Translations under genes and position numbers: made by a program
Virus record (IMG/VR): IMGVR_UViG_3300045988_184153
Length of the DNA: 64,000 bases
Source of the DNA: a virus
Direction: 5' to 3' (one strand)
Shown here: positions 6,308 to 62,936 of the stretch, piece by piece
How positions within the stretch are numbered: position 1 is the first letter of the stretch
Layout: each line of letters starts with the position of its first letter
Notes under the pieces: generated by a model
What the model was told of the DNA's origin: nothing
What the model saw: only the letters and a program-made list of their open reading frames with translations
The model's database searches: none

Positions 6308-9127
6308 TTGCAAAGTAAAAATAAAATTCTAAAACGTTTAGTTGGTTCATCTGCTATTCTAGTTACAGCTTTAGGTACTGTATCAACAATGCAACCAGCA
6401 TTTGCGAATCAAAATGTTGAAGTTCAAAAACAAGCAGGTGAAAACTTATCATTTGATGGAAGAACAGATACTGACAAAATTGTAAACCCTACAGCCGGAA
6501 GTAACACTCCTGACGCAGACGGCTACTATAATAGCCAAATCAAGGATATAACAGTCCTTTCTAAAAATGAAAACGACAATAGTGTTCGTTATCGTATCAC
6601 CTTTAAAGATGGATTTTCTATTCCGAAGGGTGGTCAAATCAGATTTTTGATGAGTTCAGCAAATCAATATGCTCCTGCAAAAGATCTTTATATGGGTAAA
6701 ACGAATGTTGCTACAATCTCAACTGCAAAGACAACAGATACCTCAAAAGAATTTATTGATAATTTAAAATCAGAAAATACTCTTGCTGGATATCGTTCTA
6801 AGTTAGATAAAGCTACTAGCGTTGATGTATTCGGTACTACAGAGTGGAAAATGACTTTTAACGAAGAGTTTGAGAAATTGAATAAAGATCGTTATGTCGA
6901 ATTTGTTGCAAGCAACTATATTGGACCAATCGAAAACAAGAAACTTCCAATTCTTTATATTGACGGTCAAGAAAAAGCTAAGTTGTTTGCGGATGATACA
7001 ATTTACAAAAAATATGAAAATAAGTTAATCATTCCATCTGTAACAGATAAGGCTTTAGCTGCTCCATACCTAAAATTGAAATATCCAATTTCAGATACAA
7101 GAGTAAAACTTATTGATCAACCTAACTACACAAGTGGATCTATTTTTGGATTAACAACAAACCCTGGATCTACAAAAAAACTACCGCTTTACCTATCTGA
7201 CGCACATTTCTACACATCTTACATCATTAAATCCGTTGGGGGAGAAGACGAAGAACACCGTGTAATTGAAAGAAATAAAGTTAACGGTCAAGAATTTTTC
7301 CTTAAAAAAGGCGATAAGATCAAAATGAACGTCCCAGAGGGATCTAAGCGTTTACTTGATATTAAATCTACAAACAAAGTTGGAGATATTATCGAGGGTG
7401 CTAACGTAGAAATTTTCTCTAGACCTGATAAAGACGGTGATCGCTTTACAGACTCAAATCTATACGAAAAAGATCGTCCTCTAACTAAAAAAGATGTTCC
7501 TGTAACTCTTAAGCTTTCAAAAATTAGTGAGAGTGGTGTTGAATACGAAGTTATGACAGATGTTCCGCTAGAAAACAACGCATTTGCTAAGTTTAGTTTT
7601 GGGGCTGCTTCAAAAGGTCTTTCTGTTGAGTTGAGAGAAAACTGGTTAGATGAATACGGTGCTGATAGACTCAAGGACTTTTTGTCAAGTAACAAGCTTT
7701 CTGATGAGTTGACTAAGAAAGATGGTTTTGGATTTGAAGTTAAATTGTCTAGAGAAGATAAAGATTTAGCTAAATTTGATAGATCAGTTAAATTGGTTAA
7801 AAACCCTAACTTAGCATTTGGTGAATCAACAAAAGGAACTATTAAAGTTAAATTTGTTGACGAAAAAACTGGTGAGGAAATCAAAGGCAACCCTATCGAA
7901 GTTGTCGCAAAAGATAGACCTTGGTACGAAACAGTTAACATTAAACCTAAGAAGATTGCTGATTACACGTATGTAAGTGCTGATGGCCCACTATCTACAA
8001 TCGTAGGTTCTGGAGAACAAACAGTTACACTTAAATACAAGAAGAATGTTCCTGATAAACCGGTAACAGATGATACAGATCCAAAAGATAAGGATCCTAA
8101 GACAACAGAAGCGCCTAAGACAACGGAAGCGCCTAAGACAACGGAAGCGCCTAAGACAACGGAAGAACCTAAGACAACAGAGGCTCCTAAGACGACAGAA
8201 GCGCCTAAGACAACGGAAGCGCCTAAGACGACAGAAGAACCTAAGACAACGGAAGCGCCTAAGACGACAGAAGAACCTAAGACAACAGAAGCTCCTAAGA
8301 CAACAGAAGCTCCTAAGACAACAGAAGTTCCTAAGACAACAGAAGTTCCTAAAGAAGTCACCACAACATTCAAGGATGATAAGGGTAATATCATTAAGAA
8401 AGAAAAGGGTACAAAGGACAAGGAAGATATCCCTGGATACAAATATATCAGAACTGAAAAGGATAAAGATGGCAACACAACTCACATCTATCACAAGATC
8501 GTAACACGTCATATTGAAAACAAAGAGGGTAAAGTAATTCTCCTTAAAGAAGAGGATGGAAACAAACCTAAAGGAACTTTCCCGGGTTATGATTTTGTAG
8601 AGACAAAAGTGAATCCTGAAAACGGAGATGTAACACATATCTATAAAGCTACTCCGGAAAAACCTGCTGAAACACCTAAAGAAGATATCACTACATTCTT
8701 CAAGGATGATAAGGGCAATGTCATTAAGACAGAAAAAGGTAATAAAGACAAGGAAGATATTCCTGGCTACAAATACCTAAGAACTGAAAAGGATAAAGAT
8801 GGCAATACTGTCCACCTATACCACAAAATTGTTACACGTCACGTTGAAAACAAAGATGGAAAAGTTATTGTTCTTAAAGAAGAAGAGGGCAATAAACCAA
8901 AAACCAACATCAGCGGATATGATTTTGTTGAAACAAAAGTTGATCCTGAAAATGGAGATGTAACACATTTCTACAAAGCTAACAACAAATCACCTGAGAA
9001 AAAAGACGCTGTTAAGACAGGGGCTAACGCTTCCTCAATCATTACTCCACTTATCGCACTAGTTGCTGGTGGTGGTGCAATCGGTGCAGCTACATACATC
9101 TCAAAACGCAAACGTAACGACAAGTAA
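6308..9127 (+). CDS. Cell-wall-anchored surface protein (939 aa): signal peptide, large N-terminal region, about 14 PKTTEA repeats, two about 100-aa duplicated adhesin-type repeats, C-terminal sorting signal AVKTGANAS + TM + KRKRNDK
   Basis: TTG start with AAGGAGA upstream. Signal peptide KILKRLVGSSAILVTALGTVSTMQPAFA. C-terminal LPXTG-like variant, hydrophobic stretch, basic tail. Terminator at 9146-9180. Confidence 0.8.
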   Translation: MQSKNKILKRLVGSSAILVTALGTVSTMQPAFANQNVEVQKQAGENLSFDGRTDTDKIVNPTAGSNTPDADGYYNSQIKDITVLSKNENDNSVRYRITFKDGFSIPKGGQIRFLMSSANQYAPAKDLYMGKTNVATISTAKTTDTSKEFIDNLKSENTLAGYRSKLDKATSVDVFGTTEWKMTFNEEFEKLNKDRYVEFVASNYIGPIENKKLPILYIDGQEKAKLFADDTIYKKYENKLIIPSVTDKALAAPYLKLKYPISDTRVKLIDQPNYTSGSIFGLTTNPGSTKKLPLYLSDAHFYTSYIIKSVGGEDEEHRVIERNKVNGQEFFLKKGDKIKMNVPEGSKRLLDIKSTNKVGDIIEGANVEIFSRPDKDGDRFTDSNLYEKDRPLTKKDVPVTLKLSKISESGVEYEVMTDVPLENNAFAKFSFGAASKGLSVELRENWLDEYGADRLKDFLSSNKLSDELTKKDGFGFEVKLSREDKDLAKFDRSVKLVKNPNLAFGESTKGTIKVKFVDEKTGEEIKGNPIEVVAKDRPWYETVNIKPKKIADYTYVSADGPLSTIVGSGEQTVTLKYKKNVPDKPVTDDTDPKDKDPKTTEAPKTTEAPKTTEAPKTTEEPKTTEAPKTTEAPKTTEAPKTTEEPKTTEAPKTTEEPKTTEAPKTTEAPKTTEVPKTTEVPKEVTTTFKDDKGNIIKKEKGTKDKEDIPGYKYIRTEKDKDGNTTHIYHKIVTRHIENKEGKVILLKEEDGNKPKGTFPGYDFVETKVNPENGDVTHIYKATPEKPAETPKEDITTFFKDDKGNVIKTEKGNKDKEDIPGYKYLRTEKDKDGNTVHLYHKIVTRHVENKDGKVIVLKEEEGNKPKTNISGYDFVETKVDPENGDVTHFYKANNKSPEKKDAVKTGANASSIITPLIALVAGGGAIGAATYISKRKRNDK
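8095..8350 (+). repeat. About 14 tandem 18-nt repeats (CCTAAGACAACGGAAGCG and variants) encoding PKTTEA/PKTTEE/PKTTEV
   Basis: Direct reading. The antisense ORFs 7963..8478 and 7991..8638 are artefacts of this array. Confidence 0.9.
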
Positions 9128-10473: not shown

Positions 10474-10479
10474 GAAAGG

Positions 10480-11990
10480 AGTTACAAAACATTTGTCAAA
10501 AATATTGACAAATGTATTAATATATGTCATCATATACTTATGATTAAATTGAATGATTATTCACGTTTTCTCTTGTTGAATTTATGGTTTAAGGAAGTAT
10601 AAAATGGGGTTGCTGAAAAATGAAAGCTTATAAAACAGAAATAGATCCAACAAAATTTCAAATTGAGCTGATACACAAAACCTTTGGATGTACTCGTTAC
10701 GTTTACAATCAGTTTGTATTTGAAAACTTGGAAAATCTACGATTAGGTAATAAATTCATATCTGCTTTTGATTATTCAAAGAGAACCAATAATGATCCCG
10801 AAACTCCTAGTTGGTTGAAGGAGGTTCCGAGTAAAGCAATAAAGCAATCTTTAATTTATGCTGATCGTGCTTTTAGAGATTATTTTTCTAAACGTAAAGG
10901 AAAACCCAAATTTAAAAAGAAAGGCTCGAATGAAAGTTTTTACCTTATAGGAACTATAAAAGTTGAACGTCATCGTATATTTGTACCAGTTTTAAAATGG
11001 ATTAAGTTGAAAGAATTTGGGTATATTCCTAAGAATATTAGTTCTGTGACCATATCTATGAAAAATGGAAGATATTATATTTCTTGCTTATGTAAAGATG
11101 AAGTAGATGAACGTATACCTTTATCTAACTACATTATGGGGATCGATTTTGGCCTAAAAGACCAGTTTATCACAGAAGATAGAATTATACCATCAATTAA
11201 TAGAACCCCACGCATTAAAAAACTGGAGAAACGTTTACGCAGAGAGCAAAGAAAACTTTCTCGCAAATATGAAGCAAATATTGTCGATAAGGTTTTTTAT
11301 AAAACGGGCACTAAAAAGGGGCAACTTAAGTCTTACAAGCGGTTGAAACCTTTGCCTGATTGTAAGAATATTCAAAAGCAGAAATTGAAAGTTGCTCATA
11401 TTTATGAGCGTTTAACTCGTATTCGGACGGAATATAATCGGAAGGCGCTACATTCTTTAGTGTTAGAGCGAAAACCAAGCTCTATTGTTATAGAAAACTT
11501 AGCAGTGCGAAACTTGATGAAAAACCGTCGTTTGAGTAAAACCATCTCGAAAGCTCAGTGGTATCAGAGTCGATTGTATTTAGAAAATCTATGTAAAAAG
11601 TTAGGCATAGAACTAAGATTAGTAGACAGATTTTACCCGTCTAGTAAACTATGTTCTGATTGTGGTTTTAAGTATAAAGATTTAAAACTGAGTGAAAGAT
11701 TTTGGACTTGTTCTAATTGTGGTAGTGAACACGATAGAGATAGAAATGCCGCTATCAATTTAGGACAATGCAAACAATATACTGTGTTGACAGCAGTTTA
11801 AATATCGTCTCTACCGTGGGTTACACGGGAAGTTAAGCTTGTGGACTGTTATATCAAATGAGAGTAGACTTTATATTTCAAAGTATAAAGACAAAATCAG
11901 ACAGGTTGAAGCAAGAAGAATTTTTAAAAATAATTTAGAAAGGATCGTAAAATATACATTTTGGTATATTTTATGTAACAGTTTTATATT
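10480..11990 (+). mobile_element. IS200/IS605-family element carrying only tnpB (IS1341-like, non-autonomous), with structured flanks
   Basis: tnpB CDS. Upstream perfect 10-bp inverted repeat ACATTTGTCA-7nt-TGACAAATGT at about 10488-10514. Downstream 190 bp with several hairpins (CCGTGGGTTACACGG, CTTTATA..TATAAAG, AAATATAC..GTATATTT) consistent with a right end and omega-RNA region. No tnpA nearby. Boundaries are approximate. Confidence 0.55.
10620..11801 (+). CDS. tnpB: TnpB (IS605 OrfB family, RuvC-like RNA-guided endonuclease), 393 aa, catalytic motifs intact
   Basis: RuvC-I GIDFGLKD, RuvC-II IVIENL, zinc finger CSDCG...CSNCG, RuvC-III HDRDRNAAINL. These are family-defining motifs. Confidence 0.85.
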   Translation: MKAYKTEIDPTKFQIELIHKTFGCTRYVYNQFVFENLENLRLGNKFISAFDYSKRTNNDPETPSWLKEVPSKAIKQSLIYADRAFRDYFSKRKGKPKFKKKGSNESFYLIGTIKVERHRIFVPVLKWIKLKEFGYIPKNISSVTISMKNGRYYISCLCKDEVDERIPLSNYIMGIDFGLKDQFITEDRIIPSINRTPRIKKLEKRLRREQRKLSRKYEANIVDKVFYKTGTKKGQLKSYKRLKPLPDCKNIQKQKLKVAHIYERLTRIRTEYNRKALHSLVLERKPSSIVIENLAVRNLMKNRRLSKTISKAQWYQSRLYLENLCKKLGIELRLVDRFYPSSKLCSDCGFKYKDLKLSERFWTCSNCGSEHDRDRNAAINLGQCKQYTVLTAV

Positions 11991-11995
11991 CTCTA

Positions 11996-12820
11996 ATGAA
12001 AAAATTTTTAAAACGACTATTATTCGTTGTGGTTATTCTTGGAGTTTTTTCCGGTCTGGGATGGTACTCTTATAAAAGTGGTTGGCTAGAGAAAAAATTA
12101 TCCACTACTTCGGTTCCTTTTGAATTTTTCAGGACTTATAATAACAAATCAATCAATGAAATGACGGTTAAAAACGAAGGGAATCGTTCAGCAGAGACTC
12201 TTAAAAAGGAACTCTATGGATTAACATCAATATTCAATTCTGATACTGTAACAAAACCAGACATCAGCTCTACACATTTGACAGATTCAGGAAAGGATGA
12301 GTTAAACAAAATTCTAGAGCCTATTTATGGTGTAGAGAATCAATTCGTAGGTGAATCTCACGTAACAGGATTTGTTCAAGACAAGGACGGTTGGAATCCA
12401 ATCGTCACCTTTAGTGTTTTTAATGATACATCATCAATTCAGAATATTAGTTATAAACTTGTTAAAGCAGATGGTGTTTGGAGCTTATCGGATAAGATTT
12501 CTGAAACAACAGATGAGTTTGCATATTCGGAATTACCAGATGATTTTAGCGTGACTTATTTGGATCAGATCATCGCTCAAGATGATAAGTTTTATAAAAA
12601 TAAACAGTGGCAAAATCTCACATCAACAGTTCCAGAAGAGGTTACTGAATTACTTTCAAAAAACTATCCAAATACAACTTCAAGAATTGTATATTTCGAT
12701 TCAACAGCAATGGTTAAAATTTACCACGCTGTAAGCACTCCTGAGAAGATTAAGTTTATTGTTAGAACTCAATCACTAGACAGTGCAAACTCTTCAGTTT
12801 ATTCTTTGAATATTGAATAA
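11996..12820 (+). CDS. Membrane-anchored or secreted hypothetical protein (274 aa)
   Basis: ORF track. N-terminal hydrophobic segment LLFVVVILGVFSGLGWY. Confidence 0.6.
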   Translation: MKKFLKRLLFVVVILGVFSGLGWYSYKSGWLEKKLSTTSVPFEFFRTYNNKSINEMTVKNEGNRSAETLKKELYGLTSIFNSDTVTKPDISSTHLTDSGKDELNKILEPIYGVENQFVGESHVTGFVQDKDGWNPIVTFSVFNDTSSIQNISYKLVKADGVWSLSDKISETTDEFAYSELPDDFSVTYLDQIIAQDDKFYKNKQWQNLTSTVPEEVTELLSKNYPNTTSRIVYFDSTAMVKIYHAVSTPEKIKFIVRTQSLDSANSSVYSLNIE

Positions 12821-12843
12821 TTATTAAAATTAAAATCTAATTG

Positions 12844-12925
12844 TTGACAAAAATATTTTTTTCAACTATAATAATAGTAGCGATAAAACGCCCTTCGCTA
12901 CAAAAAATTCAAAAAGGGTTTTTGT
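12844..12925 (+). promoter_or_regulatory. Perfect-consensus sigma-A promoter plus conserved leader element, copy 1, upstream of 13040..13816
   Basis: -35 TTGACA (12844-12849), 17 nt, -10 TATAAT (12867-12872). Then TAGCGATAAAACGCCCTTCGCTACAAAAAATTCAAAAAGGGTTTTT, with stem TAGCGA/TCGCTA and GCCCTT/AAGGGT+U-run. Second copy at 29611. Confidence 0.6.
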
Positions 12926-13039
12926 CTTTCTAGCAACATACTGCGATGACTTCAACCATCGTCGCACGTCTCTTGCATTCACACTGAGGGGATTGTGCAA
13001 ACGATCCCTTCTTTTAATTAAGAATCGAGGTATTTTTTT

Positions 13040-13816
13040 ATGAAACAAGTCCTAAAACGATTACAGGATGGAATTGACAATGGGTCAATCAGTATTGATG
13101 AGGCTCGCTCACAATTGGGGCCAACAAGTGTTTATTTTGACACTTGCGATTTGAAACTTTACACAAAACTAAAAAAATCAATTGATAAAAATGTTGGTTA
13201 TAACCACTTATTCTTGTTTGATCAAGATGTTAAAGAAAAGATTCCGGTTGATGTTTATAAGGATTACATCAAAAAGGCTTGCGACCATATCGAAGCGCTT
13301 TTGCACGATAACCCTAAAATGGGTCAGCGAATCGAGCTTGTGAAGAAAAATTGGCTTAGTTTAACAATCATCACATCTTCAATTGACGAAGAGTTCGAAC
13401 TTTTTAAATCCATTCGGGCCTCCTATTCGGATATCGAATTTAACGCAACCTTTGGTCAACGATACGAAGAAGATTTTAAAAACTACATTTACAAAGAACT
13501 TCGCTCAGAAGCCAATTCCAAAAAGGATTCTTCAGATCTTGGAAGTGCAACTAACTTCCTTTATAAAACAAACATCGTAAAATTCTTTGGCGGTGAAATT
13601 GCAGCAGAATTACTTTGCTCGCTAACCGGAAAATCACGTGAACGTTACGTTCTACAAGGTAAGATTACATCGGATTTTCTCAGAAGCCCTCACACAGTAG
13701 CAAATTTCTTCTCTTTGGAACAAATCGAAAAAATCGAATCTAACTTAGAGGAATATAGTATCTGGAATAATCAAATTCTAGATTTATTGAATATTGCTAA
13801 GAAAAAGCTTAAGTAA
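13040..13816 (+). CDS. Hypothetical protein (258 aa)
   Basis: ORF track. Preceded by leader copy 1. Terminator at 13823-13860. Confidence 0.65.
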   Translation: MKQVLKRLQDGIDNGSISIDEARSQLGPTSVYFDTCDLKLYTKLKKSIDKNVGYNHLFLFDQDVKEKIPVDVYKDYIKKACDHIEALLHDNPKMGQRIELVKKNWLSLTIITSSIDEEFELFKSIRASYSDIEFNATFGQRYEEDFKNYIYKELRSEANSKKDSSDLGSATNFLYKTNIVKFFGGEIAAELLCSLTGKSRERYVLQGKITSDFLRSPHTVANFFSLEQIEKIESNLEEYSIWNNQILDLLNIAKKKLK

Positions 13817-13822
13817 TTAATC

Positions 13823-13860
13823 AGAGACTGTTTTTATTGAAGACAGTCTCTCTTTTCTTT
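13823..13860 (+). terminator. Rho-independent terminator
   Basis: AGAGACTGTTTTTATTGAAGACAGTCTCT hairpin followed by CTTTTCTTTT. Confidence 0.75.
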
Positions 13861-13922
13861 TATAATTTAAGAAATTTGTAAAATATCTGAATTAATTTCA
13901 GAAAGGAAAGAAGGAAATTTTA
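13861..13922 (+). promoter_or_regulatory. Canonical promoter/5'UTR cassette: TATAAT-TTAAGAAA, inverted repeat TCTGAATTAATTTCAGA, extended SD AGGAAAGAAGGAAA, then ATG
   Basis: Direct reading. The same architecture recurs more than 30 times in the window. Confidence 0.7.
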
Positions 13923-15446
13923 ATGGTAAAGCAAACTAATGTTAGTTTTGAATCAAAATATTTGCGTATGTTGAATAATATTGCGAAAAGGATGGTTGAG
14001 AATAGCTTCGAAATTAAAGTTGACGAATCTTATTTGATAGATAATTTATCAAAAACCTCAATGAATAAAAATAGATTATCATTATCGATCAATGGCAATG
14101 GATGTCAGCTAATTATTTTCGGGGATGAGGGGGCAGATTTTAATAACATAAACTATTGTAATTTTGAAAATATTTTTACAGGGATTGTTATTAAAGATTT
14201 GAATATCGAGAAATATCTCAGAGAAGAGACTAGATATGGTAAGTTCTATGGTCATAATCTATCAAAGGTAATTGGCAAAACTTTGCTAGATGAATTATCT
14301 GATTTAAACTCAAATAATGACTTCACAAACCATCAAACTTTGAATTTAATTGATAATCTAACGCCAGGACTTGCTTTGTTAATTTATGTTAAATTAATGG
14401 AGATTGGTTCTCGTTACAACAATTACGATTCTCACGAGATCAAATACTACATTGATGACAAAGATGTTAACGAAGGTATTTATAGAGATCTTGACCTTTG
14501 TAAGTTCTTACTAGAAGATGTGAAAAATTATTTTTCAGAAGACGTTTTGGTTGATCGAGTTGCGAATGCTATTTCTGAGTATATTTCTGATGATGAAGAT
14601 ACGTATGAAAACGTAAACTATTTCTGTATTTCAAATTCGAGATGTAAAACTTTTTTTGATACAATTGTAAAATGTTTCGGCAAAGATGTATTTGTGAGTG
14701 CTATCCAAAAATTATTGAGTAGCGAACATCATAATTTAAATGATTGTGACTGCGATCATCTGCGTAATAGTGAATTAAAATCTCATTTTGTTTTCGCAAA
14801 ATCTATTCTTAAATTTTTAAAGGAAGGAGATTTCAGTGAATCACAAAAGAAAATTCTTTTTGATGAATTGATGTTTGTTTTTTTTGAGAAAGATGAACAT
14901 TCAGAATACACACTTCATCAAAAATGGCAACAGATGTTTGATGTAGCTCAAAAAAAATCTGCTTTTGATTTTCGTTTAAATGATTTTAAAGAACGATTCC
15001 AAGAAGCGTTTGGTATGTTAATTGATTACCTAAAAGAAAACAGCAATACTGATAGAACTTTATTTATCAACGCTCCAACTCATAGCGGGTGTGATTTGAA
15101 TATTTTCAAGCAAGAAAAAATTGATGATGAAGAGTTTGATATTTTTAATCCTTATCTGAAAAACTTTTTAAATTTCTTTGATTTTGCTACAAAAATTATC
15201 ACTGACCACAAGTCGGAACATCTTTTCAAAATAGTAACACTATCATACAATGATGAGTTTATAACACTAGACGAAAATGAAGATTTAAGTTCCTTGAGAA
15301 AAACAAAAGACTATCGTGAACTTCTAAATCTATCTTTGGATGTTTTTAGTGAAACTTCAGATAAATTCGATGAAGGATCGAAGCAAGTTTTAAATAAACT
15401 TATCAACAGCACAATATTCAGATTATCTCAAATTGATTCAAAATAA
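13923..15446 (+). CDS. Hypothetical protein (507 aa), starts MVKQT
   Basis: ORF track. Canonical cassette upstream. Bidirectional terminator at 15449-15476. Confidence 0.7.
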   Translation: MVKQTNVSFESKYLRMLNNIAKRMVENSFEIKVDESYLIDNLSKTSMNKNRLSLSINGNGCQLIIFGDEGADFNNINYCNFENIFTGIVIKDLNIEKYLREETRYGKFYGHNLSKVIGKTLLDELSDLNSNNDFTNHQTLNLIDNLTPGLALLIYVKLMEIGSRYNNYDSHEIKYYIDDKDVNEGIYRDLDLCKFLLEDVKNYFSEDVLVDRVANAISEYISDDEDTYENVNYFCISNSRCKTFFDTIVKCFGKDVFVSAIQKLLSSEHHNLNDCDCDHLRNSELKSHFVFAKSILKFLKEGDFSESQKKILFDELMFVFFEKDEHSEYTLHQKWQQMFDVAQKKSAFDFRLNDFKERFQEAFGMLIDYLKENSNTDRTLFINAPTHSGCDLNIFKQEKIDDEEFDIFNPYLKNFLNFFDFATKIITDHKSEHLFKIVTLSYNDEFITLDENEDLSSLRKTKDYRELLNLSLDVFSETSDKFDEGSKQVLNKLINSTIFRLSQIDSK

Positions 15447-19229: not shown

Positions 19230-19255
19230 AAAGGGACTAAATAGTCCTTTTTCTG
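19230..19255 (+). terminator. Rho-independent terminator
   Basis: AAGGGACTAAATAGTCCTTT hairpin followed by TTCT. Confidence 0.7.
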
Positions 19256-19256
19256 T

Positions 19257-19313
19257 TATAATTAAAGAAATTAAAATTATCTGAAATTATTTCAGTGGAA
19301 AGAAGGAAAAAAT
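19257..19313 (+). promoter_or_regulatory. Promoter/5'UTR cassette (TGTTATAATTAAAGAAA, CTGAAATTATTTCAG, GGAAAGAAGGAAAA)
   Basis: Direct reading. Extended -10 (TGnTATAAT). Confidence 0.7.
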
Positions 19314-20828
19314 ATGGTAATTAATACAAAATCGAATATCCAAATAGAGGCTGTCATTAATGACGATATTAATTCTGTGATTTGGGTATATCTAAAAAAA
19401 TTATTAAAATCATTAAAAGAAAATGATTGGTCAACTTGGAAGGTTACTATTGGTAATAGACTAATATATCCAGATGGCTGTTTTGGTGCAAATATCCTTG
19501 GTTTTGATTTGATAAATAAAACCATAATTTTGTCAGCTGATAATTTTTCGTCAAAAGAAAAATGCGAGTTGTCAAGTGATACTTATTTATACAAAAACCT
19601 TTGGATGAAGTGTGATTTCAAATCCAAATACACCTGCAAGAAAAATATTAGTTTTAAAGCAATGGCTGATTCTATCAATGTAGAAGATTTAATTCAAAAG
19701 ATTTTGGGCTTTATTTGTGAACTATACATTGATAATGATATGTTTAATTCAACATTTGAATTTTGGAAACAAATTTCTCTAGATAGAAATTTAAATTCTT
19801 ACAATAATCTTTTTGATTATATAAAAGACAAAAAGTTGTCAAAAAATTCTGATTTATTTTTAAAGGATCTTTTAACTAAATATTTCGTTGAATATTCTAA
19901 GAAGAATATTAAATGTATTAAGGAATCTGCTTACGAATTTGGATACGACCTTAAAGAATTTGAGAAAATTGTGCCTGGGATCATCACCAAAGATTTCATC
20001 AACGATATAATGGATTACAACAATTATGAATATAACAAACTTTATCAAGATAGCTTGTCTAAATCCGGTAAAAATTCTCTAAGTCTATTCAAATTCTTTT
20101 TAACAAACTATTATTTATTTAAGGAGAGTGTTTTGAATCGAGAGGATTCAAATTACAGAGATAATTTGCTAGTATTATCCACTATTTTATTCTTGGTAGA
20201 AGAAAATAGGTTTTCAAATTCATTAACATTTTCGCCTAAAATCTCAGCTTTGTACCAGTCTGACACAAGTGCTTATAATATTGCAGCAAAAGACCTCCTT
20301 AATTTATTAAAGGAAGAGTTTGGCACTGTAATTGTAAGAGTTGATTGCATTCGCTATCTTATTTACAGTAAGGAGATTCGTGATATCCACTTATCTTTAG
20401 GAAAGAACGATTTTTCTATCAGAAATTTTTCATCTTTGTTGAAAAATATTCGCTCTTTAGGTAAAGATAATTTTGAGCTTGTAATGAAATACAATAATCG
20501 TATAAGTGCAACCCCAGATAACGTTTTACTGATAAGTAAACACAAAAACGTTCCAACCCTTTTGATGGAAGTTAATTATTTTAAAGAATACAAATATTCA
20601 ATTAGAGAAGAATATCTGTATTACAGCAATTTAATTGATGTTGCTAAAGACACAAAAGAGTTGTTATCTGAATCATCTAGAGATAAGATTGTATTGCTAG
20701 ATGATTTTCAGAAGGAGTGTGGTGAACAAATCCAGAAGATGGGGTACAATCGTTTTTTAGGATTTTTTAGAAAAATCTTATCAAAATTAAAATCAGAAAA
20801 AATAAAATCAATTTCTGATTTTCTATGA
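19314..20828 (+). CDS. Hypothetical protein (504 aa), starts MVINT
   Basis: ORF track. Canonical cassette upstream. Confidence 0.7.
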   Translation: MVINTKSNIQIEAVINDDINSVIWVYLKKLLKSLKENDWSTWKVTIGNRLIYPDGCFGANILGFDLINKTIILSADNFSSKEKCELSSDTYLYKNLWMKCDFKSKYTCKKNISFKAMADSINVEDLIQKILGFICELYIDNDMFNSTFEFWKQISLDRNLNSYNNLFDYIKDKKLSKNSDLFLKDLLTKYFVEYSKKNIKCIKESAYEFGYDLKEFEKIVPGIITKDFINDIMDYNNYEYNKLYQDSLSKSGKNSLSLFKFFLTNYYLFKESVLNREDSNYRDNLLVLSTILFLVEENRFSNSLTFSPKISALYQSDTSAYNIAAKDLLNLLKEEFGTVIVRVDCIRYLIYSKEIRDIHLSLGKNDFSIRNFSSLLKNIRSLGKDNFELVMKYNNRISATPDNVLLISKHKNVPTLLMEVNYFKEYKYSIREEYLYYSNLIDVAKDTKELLSESSRDKIVLLDDFQKECGEQIQKMGYNRFLGFFRKILSKLKSEKIKSISDFL

Positions 20829-20976: not shown

Positions 20977-22878
20977 TTGAGAAACAATAAAAAAATTCTA
21001 AATAGGATTGCAGGATCATCTGCTATTGTTATTACAGCTCTAGGTTCTGGAGCTGGTGCAGTAGCAACTCAGATTCCTGGAATTATGAGTACAGTTCTTG
21101 CTGAAGAAGCTAAGAACGTCAATGCAACAGCAACCCTTGATGTAGGTATTCAAGAAAATAGTAATTTTGGACGAACTGATAAATTCGAAATCAGTGCCGA
21201 AGTAAAACAACCAGTCAAGGAAGGCGATACTGTAACATTTACAGCTCAAGGTATTAGTGCTACAGCCTTAAATAATCAAGAAGTTAAAACTGCTGATGGT
21301 ACTGTAATTGGTGTTATCAAGGCTAAGGTGGGAGTTGGTTCTCCGACAGGACCTGACTATTGGAAAACTGTTTATTATAAAGATAAAAACAACCTCTCAA
21401 AAGAAAACAAAGACTTGAAACCTACAGACCAAGAAGTTTCTGAGATTCAAGTTGTATTCAACAAGAAAGCAGAAGAGTTCCAAAATCTATCCTTTAAAGT
21501 TGGATCAAATAATAATCGAACAGTTATCACTGTGCCAGTAAAAGATAAGGTTGAAAAAATCAATATCAAGCTTGGTGAAAAAACCCTAGTTGAAAAGGAA
21601 AATAAAGTTTCTGCTGCTAAAATTGTTCCAAATAATTTAAATAAAAATTATTTTGGAGTTATTAGTGAAACATCGAATATCTACAACACAGAGAAAGGTT
21701 TAGGTGGTGGTGTTTCCACATTCGGCTCAGTGCCAGCAAAAAACAAAGGTTTTAAGACGGGTGATAAATTCACAATTGAATTACCTAATGATGCTGGAGT
21801 AAAAGTTGATGTTAATCGTGCCTATAAAGTTGGAGAGGTTATTACACTAAGTCACGGTAGACTTTTAAGGGAAGAAGTTACAACAGTGAACACTAACGGT
21901 GTTATACTTACACAAAAAAATGATATTAAAGTCAAAGTTGTGGAGATTAATGCTGATAAAGCTGTTTTTGAAGTTGTTGATCAGCCAAACTTTTATTACG
22001 AAGATGTTAACATTCCATTGGCTGTTGTTGCAACAGACGTAAGTAAAGTTGATCAAGCAAACAACCGTGTTAATGTTAAGTTCAAAACATCTTTCGAATC
22101 AAAATCAGATCCAACTTTAAATACTACAGAAGAATCAAAAGACGCTTACATTCCAATTCGTGGAACAAGCCTTTCTTCTACTGGTGTTAAATTAGAGTTT
22201 AAAACAACACAATGGCGTGACGTTGATACGAATAAGAACCTGAAAGCTTCTAAGGTTGACACAAAGACTTATCCAGCTGATAAGATTGAAGGTTACACTT
22301 TTGTTCGTACAGATACAGATACAAAAACTGGTAACGTTATCCACTTCTTCAAGAAGGTTGGTGATACAGGATCACGTGATGATGTAAAGGATATTAAGAC
22401 AACACGTTTCCTTGAAAAAGGAACAAATAAGGTTCTTAAACCTGAACAAAAAGGTGATAAATTCTTAGAAGCCGGAACAATAGATGGTTATACTTTCGTA
22501 AATTCTGAGGTAAAAGGTGATATCACAACTCACTTCTTTAAGAAAGCTGAAGAACCTAAAAAGCCAGAAGTTCCTAAAACTACAGAACAACCTAAGACTA
22601 CGGAAGTTCCAAAAACAACTGAAGAGCCTAAAACAACTGAAACTCCTGCAACAGAGGAGCCTAAGAAACCAGAAGCTCCAAAAACAACAGAGGCTCCTAA
22701 AACGGAAGAACCTAAAAAGGTAGAAAAACCTAAAACTGCCGACGTTAAAACACCAGACAAAAAAGACGCTGTGAAGACAGGAGCTAACGCTTCTGTTGCA
22801 TTCGCTCCACTTATCGGGATTGCCAGCGGTGTTGGTGCTATTGGTGCCGCAGTCTACGTCGTAAAAAAACGTAAATAA
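20977..22878 (+). CDS. Cell-wall-anchored surface protein (633 aa), TTG start, signal peptide, C-terminal P/T/E-rich repeats and AVKTGANAS sorting signal
   Basis: Signal peptide ILNRIAGSSAIVITALGSGAGAVATQ. C-terminal VKTGANAS...TM...KKRK. Its last about 200 nt before the repeats are near-identical to 23034..25028. Confidence 0.8.
   Translation: MRNNKKILNRIAGSSAIVITALGSGAGAVATQIPGIMSTVLAEEAKNVNATATLDVGIQENSNFGRTDKFEISAEVKQPVKEGDTVTFTAQGISATALNNQEVKTADGTVIGVIKAKVGVGSPTGPDYWKTVYYKDKNNLSKENKDLKPTDQEVSEIQVVFNKKAEEFQNLSFKVGSNNNRTVITVPVKDKVEKINIKLGEKTLVEKENKVSAAKIVPNNLNKNYFGVISETSNIYNTEKGLGGGVSTFGSVPAKNKGFKTGDKFTIELPNDAGVKVDVNRAYKVGEVITLSHGRLLREEVTTVNTNGVILTQKNDIKVKVVEINADKAVFEVVDQPNFYYEDVNIPLAVVATDVSKVDQANNRVNVKFKTSFESKSDPTLNTTEESKDAYIPIRGTSLSSTGVKLEFKTTQWRDVDTNKNLKASKVDTKTYPADKIEGYTFVRTDTDTKTGNVIHFFKKVGDTGSRDDVKDIKTTRFLEKGTNKVLKPEQKGDKFLEAGTIDGYTFVNSEVKGDITTHFFKKAEEPKKPEVPKTTEQPKTTEVPKTTEEPKTTETPATEEPKKPEAPKTTEAPKTEEPKKVEKPKTADVKTPDKKDAVKTGANASVAFAPLIGIASGVGAIGAAVYVVKKRK
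22375..22580 (+). repeat. About 200-nt near-identical (about 97%) segment shared with 24522-24727 (encodes RDDVKDIKTTRFLEKGTNKVLKPEQKGDKFLEAGTIDGYTFVNSEVKGDITTHFFKKAEEPKKPE)
   Basis: Direct alignment by eye; only a few synonymous differences. Confidence 0.85.
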
Positions 22879-25028: not shown

Positions 25029-25142
25029 TATTTTAAAATAAAAGATTATCACTAAACTTATTTAGTGATAATTTTTTTATAAAAAACTTATTTTTATTAA
25101 GCTATAATAGAGAGAGAAATAAAAAAAGGAATGGTATTTATC

Positions 25143-26963
25143 TTGAATAAAAGAAAATTGTCATCTATTTTGGCTACTGGTGCATTAATGGTAACGGTGG
25201 CCCCTGCATTAGGAACATTTGTACAAGTAGGTAATAATATCGCACACGCAGAAGTTTTCAAAGCCGGATCTACTGGAACACGAACGATTAAATTTAATGT
25301 AAAAGCTGGAGAATCAGTGACCTCAAAGACTGAAACTGTTACAGAGCCCGTTGACTTGATTCTCGTTGTAGACGGATCAGGATCCTTCACTGAGCCTTTT
25401 AATGATGGTAAAAACCCATCTCGAAGAAAATTCCAAGCTGCTCTTATCGACGCTGCGAAATTAGTTGAATCTTTACCAGAGGGATCTCAGGTTATGATTG
25501 CTTCCTATACTTGGAATACGACAGAATCGTACACATCTAACAGAATCACTAATTTAATTCCAAAAGCAGACGCCGCTAGAATTTTGAAAGATATCCTAAA
25601 TAAACCATCTGATTTAGACTGGTATACAACTTGGGAAAGATACTTATCTGATGTCGATAAAAAGATTTACAGCTCTTACGAAAAATTACCATACGAAGAA
25701 GCTTATGAAAAATCTAAAGCAAACAAAAATAAATATGTTTCTGTAGTGCAATTCACCGATGAATGGGTGCCAAATGAGGATATTGATACTTCTTTTGCTG
25801 AGTGGTCTAAGAAGAATGCAAAGACCTTTATGAGTGTAATTTATAACAAGACTGATAATGCTGCAATTTCTGAAGCTCAGATGAAGAAAATTGGACACCC
25901 AAATATTTACAACGCACGTGGAAAAACTGATGATCAACGTCAAAAGGACATTATTGAAAAATTCAAAACATCAGGTTTAAAAACAACAGTTATTAAAAAT
26001 CGAGTCTCTCCAGAGGGTGTTGTGACAGTTAAGGCCGAAAAGGGTATTGATATCACTGAAGTTGAATTAGTATCTCCTAAAGGAGTAAAAGAAAAACTTG
26101 AAAAACAACCAGGTGACGCAATCTCTTGGTCTTGGAAGGGTAAATTTGCTGAAGATGGAGAATATACTCTAAACTACAAGTTTACTGGAACACCTTCAGA
26201 AACAAAATCAATTACTGGTACTGTTCAAGTCTCAAATAAAGAGGTAGCGAAAGCTATTGATACCATTGAACCAAACAAATCTTCCGCTGTTGATACAGCT
26301 AAAGAGGACATTCCTTTCAAAACAATTGAAGAAAAGGATCCTACACTTCCATTTGGTGAACGTAAGGTTAAAGTTAAAGGGGTTCTAGGTGAGCGCACGA
26401 TTACAAAGACATACGATGTTCTTAATGGAAAACGTGTAGGTGATCCTAAAGTTGACACTAAGGTTACAAAAGAACCAGTTGACGAAGTTGTTCTTGTTGG
26501 TACCAAAGTAGAAGAGAAAGTAACTTATAAGACAATTCACAAGGGTGATGATGGTAAGGTTCTCAAAGAAGAAAACACTGCTGCTGAAAAGTCAGAGTTT
26601 GAAGGTTACAAGTACGTTAAAACTGAAGCTGATAACTCAGACAAGTTAAACGTCGTGACAACTCACTATTACCATAAGCTAATCACAACCTATAAGGGTG
26701 TGGATGAAAACGGCAAGGAAGTTGTTTTAGAAAAAGTAGACGGAACTAAGGACAAAAAAGATTTCAAGGGTTACATCTTCGAAAAGACAGAAAAATTAGA
26801 TAACGGTGACGTTGTTCATCACTACAAGGCTAAAAAGGCTGATGAGAAGAAAAAACCGGTAGAAACCGGAGCTAATGCTGGATCAATGTTACTTCCGCTC
26901 GGAGCGCTGGGAGCCTCTGTTGCTCTTGTTAGCGTCGCTAGATTTAAGTCTAAAAGAAAATAA
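25143..26963 (+). CDS. vWA-domain surface adhesin, tandem paralog 1 (TTG start at 25143 preferred over the ORF-track ATG 25131); C-terminal PVETGANAGS sorting signal
   Basis: MIDAS-like DLILVVDGSGSF motif. Signal peptide NKRKLSSILATGALMVTVAPALG...AHAE. AAGGA sits 12 nt before the TTG. C-terminal about 530 nt are about 90% identical to paralog 2. Confidence 0.75.
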   Translation: MNKRKLSSILATGALMVTVAPALGTFVQVGNNIAHAEVFKAGSTGTRTIKFNVKAGESVTSKTETVTEPVDLILVVDGSGSFTEPFNDGKNPSRRKFQAALIDAAKLVESLPEGSQVMIASYTWNTTESYTSNRITNLIPKADAARILKDILNKPSDLDWYTTWERYLSDVDKKIYSSYEKLPYEEAYEKSKANKNKYVSVVQFTDEWVPNEDIDTSFAEWSKKNAKTFMSVIYNKTDNAAISEAQMKKIGHPNIYNARGKTDDQRQKDIIEKFKTSGLKTTVIKNRVSPEGVVTVKAEKGIDITEVELVSPKGVKEKLEKQPGDAISWSWKGKFAEDGEYTLNYKFTGTPSETKSITGTVQVSNKEVAKAIDTIEPNKSSAVDTAKEDIPFKTIEEKDPTLPFGERKVKVKGVLGERTITKTYDVLNGKRVGDPKVDTKVTKEPVDEVVLVGTKVEEKVTYKTIHKGDDGKVLKEENTAAEKSEFEGYKYVKTEADNSDKLNVVTTHYYHKLITTYKGVDENGKEVVLEKVDGTKDKKDFKGYIFEKTEKLDNGDVVHHYKAKKADEKKKPVETGANAGSMLLPLGALGASVALVSVARFKSKRK

Positions 26964-29519: not shown

Positions 29520-29610
29520 ACATCTATGTTTGGTTTTTTATTATTATTTGTAATAATTATATTTATTAATTTATTTTATTACAAAAAATAAAAATAATAA
29601 AAAAATTCTA

Positions 29611-29775
29611 TTGACAAAAAATATTTTTTTTACTATAATAATATTAGCGATAAAACGCCCTTCGCTACAAAAATTCAAAGAGGGTTTTTTCTAGTAAAGT
29701 GGTGATGGCTACCATACATCACCCTATCTCTTACATTTATATTAAGGGGTTGCTTTGCAGCCTCTTTTTTTTATT
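29611..29775 (+). ncRNA. Candidate small RNA: perfect sigma-A promoter (TTGACA-17-TATAAT), conserved about 80-nt leader (copy 2 of the element at 12844), unique about 50-nt 3' part, terminator hairpin plus U8; no downstream + strand gene
   Basis: TTGACA 29611-29616, TATAAT 29634-29639. The conserved TAGCGATAAAACGCCCTTCGCTACAAAAATTCAAAGAGGGTTTTTT. Hairpin GGTGATGGCTACCATACATCACC. Terminator GGTTGCTTTGCAGCC followed by TCTTTTTTTT. Flanking genes are on the minus strand. Confidence 0.5.
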
Positions 29776-32758: not shown

Positions 32759-32787
32759 AGAGAATCCAAACGGGTTCTCTTTTTTTC
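32759..32787 (+). terminator. Rho-independent terminator
   Basis: AGAGAATCCAAACGGGTTCTCT followed by TTTTTTT. Confidence 0.8.
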
Positions 32788-32837
32788 TCTTATAATTGAA
32801 GAAAATAAGTTTAATACTTTTAGAAAGAAGGAAAATA

Positions 32838-34085
32838 ATGGTAAAAAACACAAAGGATAATAATTTCTTTATCCTAAATCAAGCTGAAAAAGCAATTGAT
32901 GATTGCAAATTTATTTTTGGCGATTTAGAGGTTTTGAAAGAAAATGTAGATACCGATTTAGTTTCTGTACATTATTCTCGATCTTTAAATTCTTATTTGT
33001 TTAGGAGTGAGAATAGACCGTATCGTCAATTTATTGATAACTTCACAAGATTCAATTCTGACTGTACATCTCTGGGTATACACTTGAATGTTAAATTTTT
33101 AGTTGATTATCAAATTGATAAAAAGAAAGATATTTTAAATAAACTTTTAAAAAAGATGTTAAAATATTTCACTTTAAACCAACTAACAAAAGATATTATC
33201 GAAGCTATTCAATTAGAAGCTGATATAGATAATCTGGAGTTTGATGTTTCACAATATACAGATTCTATTTATGTAGATAACTACGATGAACTTTTAGAAG
33301 CTATCTCAAAAAAAAGTAATGATTTTTTGGATCAGTTAAGAGATTGGAGTAATGAAAAACATTATTATTTTTCCGATTATTTAAAACTATTGCACAGCAA
33401 AGAAGAATTAGAAAAAAATAATCTCTTTGTTGACGAAGAATATTTAAAATGGGTCGAGAAAATTTCTATTGAGGATATTAAAAAAGATTTATCTAGAATA
33501 ATCTACCATAATTATTCTCCACAAGATTGGATAAAATGTGAGAACGGAATTAAGCTTTTATCAAAAGATTATATTTCAAATAATATCTTGAAACCGGAAT
33601 ATGCAAACAAGATTAAGTTAGATTATGGTTTGGTTCAGTTGATATACAAGTATCACGGATTCGAATGTGCACCGGATGAGTTTTGGAAAAATTTTCAAAC
33701 AAAACGACAACAAGCCTTTGTTCACGACTTTTATTTTTGCAACTATGAAGATAAAAATGATTTCATTGATATGATTGTAGATATTGAAAATGAATTTGGT
33801 GTGAAAAAACAAATTACTCTCAATACTCTGGAGTTTAGAGAATTATCGAAGGCTAAAGTCGAAAATAGTAGGAGTTCTTTTATGACTCGTCTTGTATCAG
33901 TAATGGATACCGCAATTTTACTCGAAAGTGAAAAGTTCTTTGATATGATTCAAGGTAGCAATCGATTATTTAATTTCCTATCTGAATTTTATATAGCAAT
34001 GGAGGAATACGATTCTTTAATTGTTAAAGATGAGAATTACGATAAGATTATCAAAGCAATCGAGGCTTTATCTAATTTGAAATAA
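32838..34085 (+). CDS. Hypothetical protein (415 aa; start moved to MVKNTKD after the cassette SD)
   Basis: TATAATTGAAGAAA...AGAAAGAAGGAAAATA-ATG cassette. Confidence 0.65.
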   Translation: MVKNTKDNNFFILNQAEKAIDDCKFIFGDLEVLKENVDTDLVSVHYSRSLNSYLFRSENRPYRQFIDNFTRFNSDCTSLGIHLNVKFLVDYQIDKKKDILNKLLKKMLKYFTLNQLTKDIIEAIQLEADIDNLEFDVSQYTDSIYVDNYDELLEAISKKSNDFLDQLRDWSNEKHYYFSDYLKLLHSKEELEKNNLFVDEEYLKWVEKISIEDIKKDLSRIIYHNYSPQDWIKCENGIKLLSKDYISNNILKPEYANKIKLDYGLVQLIYKYHGFECAPDEFWKNFQTKRQQAFVHDFYFCNYEDKNDFIDMIVDIENEFGVKKQITLNTLEFRELSKAKVENSRSSFMTRLVSVMDTAILLESEKFFDMIQGSNRLFNFLSEFYIAMEEYDSLIVKDENYDKIIKAIEALSNLK

Positions 34086-36072: not shown

Positions 36073-36089
36073 AGAATAAACAAGTCTGT

Positions 36090-36140
36090 TATAATTAAAG
36101 AAAAATAGTAACTGAAATAGTTACAGAAAGAAGGTAAATA
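36090..36140 (+). promoter_or_regulatory. Promoter/5'UTR cassette (TGTTATAATTAAAGAAA, GTAACTGAAATAGTTAC, AGAAAGAAGGTAAATA)
   Basis: Direct reading. Confidence 0.7.
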
Positions 36141-39039: not shown

Positions 39040-39096
39040 TTTAATACCTTCTTTCTACTGAAATAAATTCAGATTTGTTATTTCTTAAATTATAAA
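39040..39096 (-). promoter_or_regulatory. Promoter/5'UTR cassette (minus strand) for 37744..39039
   Basis: Reverse complement reads TTATAATTTAAGAAATAACAAATCTGAATTTATTTCAGTAGAAAGAAGGTATTAAA-ATG. Confidence 0.65.
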
Positions 39097-39113
39097 AGCA
39101 AATCAAATTCTAT

Positions 39114-39165
39114 TATAATTTAAGAAAAATATTTTGCTGTTATTACAGCTAGAAAGAAGGAAAAA
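39114..39165 (+). promoter_or_regulatory. Promoter/5'UTR cassette (TATAATTTAAGAAA, GCTGTTATTACAGC, AGAAAGAAGGAAAAA)
   Basis: Direct reading. Confidence 0.7.
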
Positions 39166-40914: not shown

Positions 40915-41019
40915 AAGGAAAGCCTTTTACTTTTTTTACTTCAAGGACGCATACTTTTGCTATTATAATTTAAGAAATAATAATTCTGAATTTAATTCAG
41001 TTAGAAAGAAGGAAAAATA

Positions 41020-42825: not shown

Positions 42826-42900
42826 GGGGGAATCATTCCTCCTCTTTTATAATTTAAGAAATTAAAAAATCTGAATTTATTTCAGTAGAAAGAGGGAAAA

Positions 42901-47443: not shown

Positions 47444-47589
47444 ATAACTGCCCTCTTTCTAAAACTGTAAAAGTTTATTTTTTTCTAAAATTATAAAAGA
47501 TGACTAGAACCTCCCCCTCTTTTTTGTTGCAGAAAATTCAATTTTTTGATATAATATAAGAAACAAAAATATAGAAAGAAGGAATTAAA

Positions 47590-48816: not shown

Positions 48817-48908
48817 AAAAGAAGAGTGAATATTTCACTCTTCTTTTATAATTTAAGAAAAAAATATTTTACTGAATTATTTTCAGTTAGAAAAGAAGGA
48901 AATTTATA

Positions 48909-54198: not shown

Positions 54199-54266
54199 AA
54201 TTTCCTTCTTTCTAAAAATTCTATTTTTAAAAATTATAAGAAAAAGAGTAAGTAATTGAAAATTAC

Positions 54267-55286: not shown

Positions 55287-55343
55287 TTTTTCACCTTCTT
55301 TCTAAAACTATTACAGTTTTCAAATATTTCTTAAATTATAACA
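55287..55343 (-). promoter_or_regulatory. Promoter/5'UTR cassette (minus strand) for 54267..55286, directly abutting the 3' flank of the tnpB-like gene
   Basis: Reverse complement reads TGTTATAATTTAAGAAATATTTGAAAACTGTAATAGTTTTAGAAAGAAGGTGAAAAA-ATG. Confidence 0.65.
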
Positions 55344-61839: not shown

Positions 61840-61962
61840 TATTAAATTCCTTTCTTTTAACTGAATTTATTTCAGCATTTAATTCTTTCTTATATTATAA
61901 CAGAAATAAGCCTATATATCAAATTTAAAAAAGGAATATCAAACTTGATATTCCTAGTTTTA

Positions 61963-62913: not shown

Positions 62914-62936
62914 TTGTTTTTTTTATCCTTTCTTAA

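Follow-up and report, generated by a model that had tools for sequence, protein, structure and literature searches.

TnpB proteins of the IS607 family that are guided by an RNA derived from RAGATH-18 were described and structurally solved in 2024, with ISFba1 as the example (Ren et al., Cell Res 2024, PMC11061315; PDB 8IAZ). RAGATH-18 adjoins IS607 TnpBs of ~390 aa, and the bound RNA has RAGATH-18 (73 nt) between a 5' motif of 37 nt and a 3' motif of 64 nt, the latter followed by a guide, for which 20 nt is optimal (Ren et al. 2024, PMC11061315). For 18 of 22 strains the transposon-associated motif (TAM) was found to be 5'-AGGAG, and the residues D194, E290 and D371 of the ISFba1 TnpB are essential, since mutating them abolishes cleavage (Ren et al. 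2024, PMC11061315). Here we describe a tnpB element of this kind in a stretch of 64,000 nucleotides from the IMG/VR virus record IMGVR_UViG_3300045988_184153, which is called the window below. The feature is read as a 1,500-bp non-autonomous derivative of an IS607 insertion sequence (IS) at 10482-11981, composed of a left end with a promoter, an intact tnpB gene and a complete right end with its guide RNA; the probability of this reading is put at roughly 0.85. As the system was described in 2024, the locus adds a member and not a mechanism. It is useful in that public data hold both the occupied allele and an empty allele matching the TAM plus guide base for base, together with a possible escape variant, a second tnpA-less copy and full-length siblings with tnpA. 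With these components, nature provides a test of the model of homing and retention, in an element that is unable to excise itself.

The likeness to ISFba1 extends over the protein, the RNA and the target. The TnpB proteins comprise 393 aa in the window and 387 aa in ISFba1, with a RuvC D-E-D site and a zinc-ribbon region in both. The RNA has the same layout of 5' motif, RAGATH-18, 64-nt 3' motif and a guide directly after the right end, and the loop of the 5' hairpin forms a pseudoknot with the 3' terminus. The TAM is 5'-AGGAG in both cases, and in the ISFba1 family, too, tnpA is often decayed. The two elements differ in lineage (PDB 8iaz, the closest solved structure to the window TnpB, is matched by phmmer with E = 1.5e-75 in a full-length alignment) and in source, human oral as against gut metagenomes. 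The window copy has an internal deletion of tnpA and has moved as a 1.5-kb unit, and the apical stem of its RAGATH-18 is longer (80 vs ~73 nt).

The homing model for IS607 comes from work on the IS607 elements and IStrons of Clostridium (Zedaveinyte et al., bioRxiv 10.1101/2023.11.20.567912), and retention or homing has been shown for TnpBs of both IS605 and IS607. Common to those elements and the present lineage are a serine-recombinase TnpA, the absence of a target-site duplication and a scarless donor joint. In both, the core dinucleotide common to the two junctions forms the 3' end of the TAM, and the empty joint is the sequence that TnpB targets or, in the window, would target. The Clostridium elements use the target TGGG with a GG core, whereas the target here is AGGAG with an apparent AG core. 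Unlike the IStrons, the window holds no detectable group I intron, RAGATH-18 being its sole Rfam match at the gathering threshold.

The ISDra2 system of the IS200/IS605 family relies on a Y1 transposase and a single-strand DNA intermediate; it has subterminal DNA hairpins, and its TAM is TTGAT. Like the present element, it encodes an RNA-guided RuvC nuclease whose guide derives from the flank of the right end and whose TAM derives from that of the left end (Karvelis et al., Nature 2021, PMC8612924), and it differs in its RNA scaffold. In this comparison phmmer matches the window TnpB to 8bf8 with E = 3.7e-47.

Ends of the element and its empty site

A protein search returned thousands of relatives of the window TnpB. 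Identities among the top 120 are 83-92%, and nearly all of these sequences come from metagenome assemblies (ENA and Logan, with a few from JGI and NCBI); the records that name their origin are human oral or Human Microbiome Project samples. Compared loci or contigs are designated below by L-numbers and TnpB relatives by P-numbers. A pattern-based scan of genome contigs from the GTDB representative set with the single TnpB sequence gave no match, and a second scan of this type with a TnpB alignment gave only relatives of at most 47% identity. BLAST of the element against plasmid and phage collections yielded only short, distant matches to tnpB.

The ends are fixed by comparison with the unoccupied locus. 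Ten contigs (L036-L045), which were reached via orthologues of the downstream 274-aa gene (93%-identical orthologue), have the 369-aa and 274-aa genes adjacent to each other without the element and represent empty alleles; a contig with the exact downstream protein is broken at the element. At the insertion site the empty allele L039 reads ...GAAAGGAG/TTTTATATTC, or in a longer reading ...TTTTTAGAAAGGAG/TTTTATATTCTCTAATGAAAAAA, where the slash marks the junction. The occupied window reads ...GAAAGGAG/TTAC...(1,500 bp)...GTAACAG/TTTTATATTCTCTAATG. It follows from the two that the element spans 10482-11981. The first-pass annotation of this DNA had placed it at 10480-11990, a nearly correct span with ends that were off by 2-9 nt. 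Reduced to the junctions, GGAG/TTTT in the empty allele becomes GGAG/TTAC...AACAG/TTTT in the occupied one, so that there is no target-site duplication and the same dinucleotide, AG, stands at both junctions, as is characteristic of IS607. This AG, the last two bases of the TAM recurring at the right end, is likely the crossover dinucleotide of the recombinase.

Both ends and the TAM are confirmed independently by a sibling, L233, which came from the metagenome right-end scan. It is 96.2% identical over 1,509 bp and its flanks are entirely different (...ATATAAGGAG/TTAC ... AACAG/GTTGTATTTTGCC). The annotation had proposed a search for other copies as the way to define the ends and the TAM, and the empty allele and this sibling together give 10482-11981 and AGGAG. 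On the right side, homology ends at ...GTATATTTT(A/G)TGTAACAG, which is window position 11981, in seven close contexts. The break after CAG is sharp in these seven, in four distant contexts and in 46 distinct metagenome contexts. Half of the matches to the 18-nt right-end pattern in metagenomes are due to chance; they were removed by requiring upstream sequence of the right-end element RNA (reRNA).

A motif AGGAG or GAGGG is expected beside the target of such an element. AGGAG occupies the host flank at 10477-10481 (+) and is assigned as the TAM on comparative evidence, namely the empty allele L039, the left flanks of relatives and the published TAM. It stands directly left of the element in L033, L006/L143, L233, L257, L052 and L053, while CGGAG is found in L023 and AGGAA in L227; the count for AGGAG is seven of nine independent contexts. 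The host flank at the other end, TTTTATATTCTCTAATGAAA at 11982-12001 (+), corresponds to the guide, its position being set by the reRNA architecture of Ren et al. (PMC11061315). These 20 nt occur once in the window and span the ATG (11996) of the downstream 274-aa gene. L039 carries them unchanged beside AGGAG. The occupied locus is without a TAM because AACAG precedes the target there.

The downstream gene has AGGAG as its Shine-Dalgarno sequence in the empty allele. A same-strand open reading frame (ORF) of at least 60 codons starts 0-14 nt past the right end in 29 of 46 distinct contexts (63%), as against 13% for random positions in the same loci. The contexts were collected from the metagenome and IMG/VR scans (L136-L272, L033, L125, L127, L023, L053-L055, L087; window 11982-11998). 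The distance from the right end to the start codon has its mode at 8 nt and falls within 5-10 nt in 23 of the 29, and distant relatives have the same pattern. With AGGAG before the left end and a start codon after the right end, the element splits the Shine-Dalgarno sequence from the start, and the guide covers the translation start. A literature search, confined to a searchable library, found no paper linking AGGAG, TnpB and ribosome-binding sites. It may be proposed, tentatively and with the odds somewhat against it, that the RAGATH-18/IS607 lineage is specialised for ribosome-binding sites and that the 1.5-kb form is a selected, trans-mobilised cassette in Inocles (the replicons considered in the last section), acting either as an allele drive between variants of these replicons or as a translation gate for the downstream gene.

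Guide RNA scaffold and nuclease

Between the tnpB stop codon and the ATG at 11996 lie 194 nt of non-coding sequence (11802-11995) with three hairpin regions, at 11814-11828, within 11838-11917 and at 11948-11973. The first-pass annotation had noted about 190 bp with at least three hairpins and had taken this flank for a right end and omega-RNA scaffold, an interpretation upheld by the presence of RAGATH-18, by covariation and by the sharp end in many contexts. The proposal withstood the test that the annotation had set for it, since further copies, exact ends, a TAM and a conserved RNA have all been found. The predicted scaffold starts with the 36-nt 5' flanking motif of the reRNA (11802-11837, +), whose hairpin, 11814-11828, offers the loop bases 11820-11823 for a pseudoknot; this motif and the 3' flanking motif are conserved out to the relatives from Tissierella and Niallia. 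RAGATH-18 (Rfam RF03064) follows directly downstream on the same strand, 36 nt past the tnpB stop, and occupies 80 nt (11838-11917, +). It was matched in the covariance-model search that the annotation had suggested, over the full model length, with 72.5 bits against a gathering threshold of 44.9 (E = 1.4e-12). The 64-nt 3' motif (11918-11981, +) is the right end itself; it contains the stem-loop 11948-11973 and ends in ...TGTAACAG. The order of a 5' motif (~37-50 nt) and a 3' motif (~60-64 nt) followed by a variable guide is thus the one described for such RNAs, with homology stopping at ...GTARCAG. The lengths are 36 + 80 + 64 nt, compared with 37 + 73 + 64 published. A weak Rfam match to the Helicobacter pylori small RNA HPnc0580 overlaps the start of the reRNA (11799-11894, +; 24 bits, gathering 37). 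HPnc0580 may in turn act as the guide of an IS element in H. pylori.

The terminal GUAAC of the scaffold (11975-11979) pairs with the loop of the 5' hairpin. In this pseudoknot (11820-11823 with 11976-11979) a UA pair in seven close copies is replaced by CG in four distant copies, a covariation that may reflect a single evolutionary event. It corresponds to PK2 of the structure determined by cryo-electron microscopy (Ren et al., PMC11061315). The complete structure, consisting of the 5' hairpin, the RAGATH-18 helices, the 3' stem-loop and the loop-to-terminus pseudoknot, was tested on an alignment of the seven close and four distant copies. Pairing is retained in 94.7% of the cells and compensatory changes are found in 15 of 41 pairs, with the caveat that the window sequence was one of the sources of the structure. 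None of 500 shuffles reached the observed values, and slid controls gave 34-51% pairing. The folding energy of the 180-nt scaffold, -37.8 kcal/mol (z = -3.87), is not attained by any shuffled sequence. Its identity, ~88% where the synonymous divergence (dS) is ~1.1, is far above the conservation of synonymous sites.

The tnpB gene is the intact ORF 10620-11801 (+), encoding 393 aa. Pfam assigns to its product the domains HTH_OrfB_IS605 (residues 2-40), OrfB_IS605 (159-303) and Cas12f1-like_TNB (314-381), and the NCBIfam model guided_TnpB scores 243.6 bits, with a cutoff of 100. The RuvC residues are D176 (in GIDFG), E292 (VIENL) and D372 (HDRDRN), which in the 8iaz alignment correspond to D194, E290 and D371 of the ISFba1 TnpB, and the C4 zinc finger is formed by C345, C348, C364 and C367. 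The protein thus has the size of ~390 aa and the RuvC triad of the IS607 TnpB-reRNA system, and the canonical TnpB with RuvC motifs and a zinc finger that the annotation recognised is indeed present. The ratio of nonsynonymous to synonymous divergence (dN/dS) of tnpB is 0.07-0.13 against six relatives, and among the tnpA-less copies it is 0.08-0.13 at a dS of 0.3-0.5. By this measure tnpB is under strong purifying selection in every comparison. From the intact catalytic residues and the dN/dS of 0.07-0.13 it is plausible that TnpB is competent as a nuclease, as the annotation held.

Loss of tnpA and retention of the cassette

In the contigs of the relatives P0075 and P0061 a 207-aa gene lies upstream of tnpB and overlaps its start by 47 nt. 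Its product combines MerR and Resolvase domains and is the serine-recombinase TnpA that defines IS607. Relatives 83-86% identical to the window TnpB carry the same overlapping MerR and resolvase gene (L006-L014, L023-L032), and tnpA is also present in L052. Relatives at 42-47% identity (Tissierella, Niallia and a metagenome-assembled genome of Peribacteria) have a serine TnpA or fragments of it upstream and RAGATH-18 downstream.

Of this gene the window retains two remnants. The 5' remnant, ATGATTAAATTGAATGAT, has 6 codons (MIKLND; 10540-10557, +) and aligns with the start ATGATTAAATTAAAAGATATGGCT in L006 and L023. The 3' remnant has ~36 codons (IIHVFSC*IYGLRKYK..., with in-frame stops; 10556-10666, +) and overlaps the tnpB start, as does the gene in intact elements. 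The sequence passes from 18 nt of the tnpA start directly to the last ~110 nt of the gene; the intact TnpA protein ends in ...IIHVFSSRIYGLRKYKKEL.... With residues 172-207 of the L006 TnpA as query, tblastn detects a 36-aa remnant at 10556-10663 (64% identity, E = 4e-8), and a tblastn search of the 64 kb with TnpA found no tnpA sequence besides the remnant. The annotation was therefore right that tnpB stands here without an intact tnpA. It had labelled the element IS605; because the relatives pair with a MerR and Resolvase tnpA, and because remnants of this gene flank the deletion in the window, the family is IS607 and not IS605. Judged from these remnants, the window copy is a deletion derivative and not an autonomous IS, and the tnpA of its relatives supports its membership of the IS607 lineage.

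The loss of tnpA is not confined to this copy. L005, L015, L125 and L127 have lost the left part in differing ways: in L015-L022 (tnpB at 2501), L125/L126, L127 and L005, tnpB and the reRNA are kept and the left side is variously replaced or truncated, which indicates that tnpA was lost repeatedly and independently while tnpB was retained. In L015, tnpB begins 4 nt inside an unrelated 212-aa gene.

The non-coding left end (10482-10539, +) starts with TTACAAAAC and carries the tnpA/tnpB promoter. Its boundary is fixed by the empty site and by L233, and it aligns with the full-length copies L006 and L023 and with the tnpA-less L033. The alignment with the full-length copies extends from GGAGTTAC over the TTGACA promoter to the tnpA start ATGATTAAATT. 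The promoter-like sequence of the window, TTGACA-17-CATCAT preceded by TG (10505-10533, +), has 10 of 12 matches and is the best in the region. The palindrome that the annotation described, ACATTTGTCA-N7-TGACAAATGT at 10489-10498 and 10506-10515, is present and overlaps TTGACA at 10505-10510; written in full it is ACATTTGTCAA-AAATA-TTGACAAATGT (10489-10515, overlapping the -35), with perfect 11-nt arms and a 5-nt loop. At least one such repeat per 1.8 kb is expected ~4% of the time in a first-order Markov simulation. Its part as an end structure could not be upheld. The right arm is the conserved -35 region, TATTGACAAA in all relatives, and the left arm is ACAGGTGTCAA, with 9 of 11 matches, in the 96%-identical L233 and unrecognisable in L033, L127, L006 and L023. 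IS607 elements are reported to be without palindromic ends (Zedaveinyte et al., bioRxiv 10.1101/2023.11.20.567912). Because the left arm varies from copy to copy, an IS605-style end hairpin and a conserved operator were both rejected. The perfect palindrome is treated as the lineage-specific state of an imperfect repeat, which may conceivably act on the promoter like an operator.

L233 has the identical tnpA deletion junction, the weak -10 and the weak ribosome-binding site of the window copy. The shared junction indicates that the 1.5-kb form spread after the loss of tnpA, and this form is now found at two or more loci in several samples. TnpA supplied in trans is the most likely means of this spread.

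On the reading of the feature as a non-autonomous IS607 derivative, the cassette would work as follows. Transcription from the left-end promoter, or read-through, would yield the tnpB mRNA and the ~180-nt scaffold continuing into the host flank. TnpB would bind the scaffold RNA, and the resulting ribonucleoprotein would recognise 5'-AGGAG followed by TTTTATATTCTCTAATGAAA. This target is exactly the unoccupied allele of the locus, where the RuvC site would cut; the occupied locus, with AACAG in place of AGGAG before the target, would be spared. Cut empty alleles would favour repair from the occupied copy, which would amount to retention or homing. The cassette would be immobile alone, and TnpA would presumably come in trans from full-length copies in similar contigs of human oral metagenomes. 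Excision by such a TnpA would leave the joint GAAAGGAGTTTTATATTC and a circle. Expression, formation of the ribonucleoprotein, cleavage, homing and trans-mobilisation of this particular copy are what we infer from its anatomy.

Several points weigh against this reading. Relatives have a stronger -10 (TAAAAT in L006, ATAAAT in L033) than the CATCAT of this copy, and the Shine-Dalgarno sequence of tnpB is AUGGGG where relatives have AAGGAG. TnpB residue 293 is N, and D in all ten aligned relatives. Since these three traits are also found in L233, they predate the last move. P0108 and P0113 have HNRD in place of HDRD, with N at position 372, and D374 is invariant; the ISFba1 alignment nevertheless points to D372, and not D374, as the predicted catalytic aspartate. 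Nine of the ten empty alleles differ from the guide at its position 1 (T to C; ~2487 in L036-L045, 11982 in the window), and the TnpB family is reported to be mismatch-sensitive. T is found at this position in all occupied alleles and in one empty allele, L039, and this T/C polymorphism may represent an escape from cleavage or be due to simple linkage. As for L233, an alternative to its spread by transposition is that the deletion passed between loci by gene conversion.

Two other explanations accept the IS607 anatomy and dispute what the cassette now does; both are considered unlikely. According to one, the immobile TnpB and its RNA have been exapted and are kept for a benefit to the carrier, either by excluding empty-allele variants or by controlling the downstream gene. 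Frequent exaptation of TnpB is documented (Altae-Tran et al., PNAS 2023, PMC10691335), and the purifying selection is strong in spite of the missing tnpA. The fixed position between Shine-Dalgarno sequence and ATG, with the guide covering the start codon, and the coexistence of occupied and empty alleles in the population would suit such a role. A selfish homing element, however, predicts the same pattern of selection, the many different insertion sites are more in keeping with a mobile element than with a domesticated gene, and no conserved partner gene is present.

According to the other, the copy is a decaying relic whose TnpB and RNA are inactive or unexpressed and whose ORF is intact only for lack of time. 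The loss of tnpA, the weakened -10 and ribosome-binding site and N293 are what a relic would show. Such a relic is hard to reconcile with a dN/dS of 0.08-0.13 among tnpA-less copies that have reached a dS of 0.3-0.5, with an RNA scaffold kept at ~88% identity where dS is ~1.1, or with the persistence of the 1.5-kb form at no fewer than two loci and in several samples.

An IS200/IS605-family tnpB-only element, in which the palindrome and the hairpins would be single-stranded DNA hairpins read by a Y1 transposase, would agree with the 'IS605' in the Pfam and NCBIfam names, with the higher score of IS200_TnpB (277.6 bits) than of IS607_TnpB (115 bits), both below their cutoffs, and with a palindrome near the left end, but it is scarcely credible given that the 83-86% and the more distant relatives pair with a MerR and Resolvase recombinase and not with a Y1 (HUH) TnpA, that the window holds serine-recombinase remnants, that RAGATH-18 is reported only with IS607 TnpB (Ren et al., PMC11061315), that the AGGAG flank and the AG shared by both junctions are a serine-recombinase core signature, that conserved subterminal DNA hairpins at both ends are lacking, the palindrome included, and that the right-end hairpins covary as RNA down to the long-range pseudoknot.

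The second TnpB gene and the host replicon

The window contains another ORF of this superfamily, 55598-56950 (-), encoding 450 aa, which the first-pass annotation took for a degenerate copy of the first and offered as an internal comparison of how it had diverged. The two proteins are unrelated by sequence (BLASTP E = 1.1; hhalign probability 10%), and TnpB models match the second only below threshold. More than 120 relatives are listed for it, 84-99% identical and nearly all exactly 450 aa long (one has 457 aa), and its family comprises 1,480 clusters at 50% identity. An alignment of 34 sequences of this family shows no variation at D302, E360 or H431, H431 standing at the usual position of the RuvC-III D, and there are no CxxC pairs. 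The AlphaFold2 model has a mean predicted local distance difference test score (pLDDT) of 89.9 with the diverse 34-sequence alignment and of 38 with a shallow alignment. Foldseek finds Cas12f as the top PDB matches of the model (E = 4e-9); a profile search of the family against PDB sequences gave coiled-coil noise only. With its full length, the invariant D-E-H and the Cas12f-like fold, a degraded copy was rejected, and since the ORF is unrelated to the window TnpB, the divergence of a copy cannot be followed here. It is a different TnpB element, intact and probably active.

Clade RIIIr-4 is defined by a change of the RuvC-III Asp to His and by the loss of the zinc finger (Altae-Tran et al., PNAS 2023, PMC10691335). 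The second ORF has the D-E-H site, no C4 zinc finger and a Cas12f/TnpB-like fold, and it is likened to this clade by description and not by tree. Comparison with a context after recJ delimits the unit at 56968 to 55361 (-), so that it includes 18 nt ahead of the ATG and 237 nt beyond the stop; it occurs in at least two genomic contexts. The 237-nt 3' tail is 93% conserved with a sharp break after ...TTCTTGTACCA, and there is a weak match to IS605-orfB-I (22 bits, gathering 94). The unit sits among paralogous-looking genes at 53155-55286, 57260-58219 and 60835-63890 (-), whose products of 316-347 aa have similar C-terminal motifs (...RFAEAVSRLLQE / ...RFADIITELLLE). No Pfam family was found in the two of these proteins that were scanned (339 aa and 319 aa).

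The replicon from which the window derives is probably an 'Inocle', as judged from its features and not from alignment. Inocles are giant extrachromosomal, plasmid-like elements of oral Streptococcus, of ~245-395 kb and 32% GC; their description reports abundant insertion sequences and makes no mention of TnpB (Kiguchi et al. 2025). The window has 32.3% G+C. The samples are human oral and include PRJEB6997, and related contigs (BNJS-BNJV, IMGVR_UViG_3300045988_*) measure ~250 to ~392 kb. Genes nearby encode a sortase, a bifunctional transglycosylase and surface-repeat or LPXTG-like proteins, and most proteins have no Pfam family; among 15 other window proteins, Pfam found only G5 and SSSPR-51 repeats. 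Related contigs of 226-325 kb are classed as viral in IMG/VR. ARAGORN found no tRNA in the window.

Large surface proteins are encoded at 6308-9127 (+), 20977-22878 and 25131-26963. In the first, PKTTEAPKTTE is repeated in tandem and the C-terminus forms a membrane anchor; an orthologue of it carries SSSPR-51. SSSPR-51 is found in the other two, and G5 in the protein of 25131-26963. An intergenic repeat of ~60-110 nt, containing TTGACA...TATAAT followed by a short GC hairpin, lies upstream of many genes. Its approximate sites are 12820-13040, 13855-13931, 19249-19331, 29585-29692, 32785-32858, 36085-36148, 39032-39171, 40960-41025, 42843-42900, 47451-47500, 48835-48911 and 55270-55345. It resembles a promoter and leader common to these genes.

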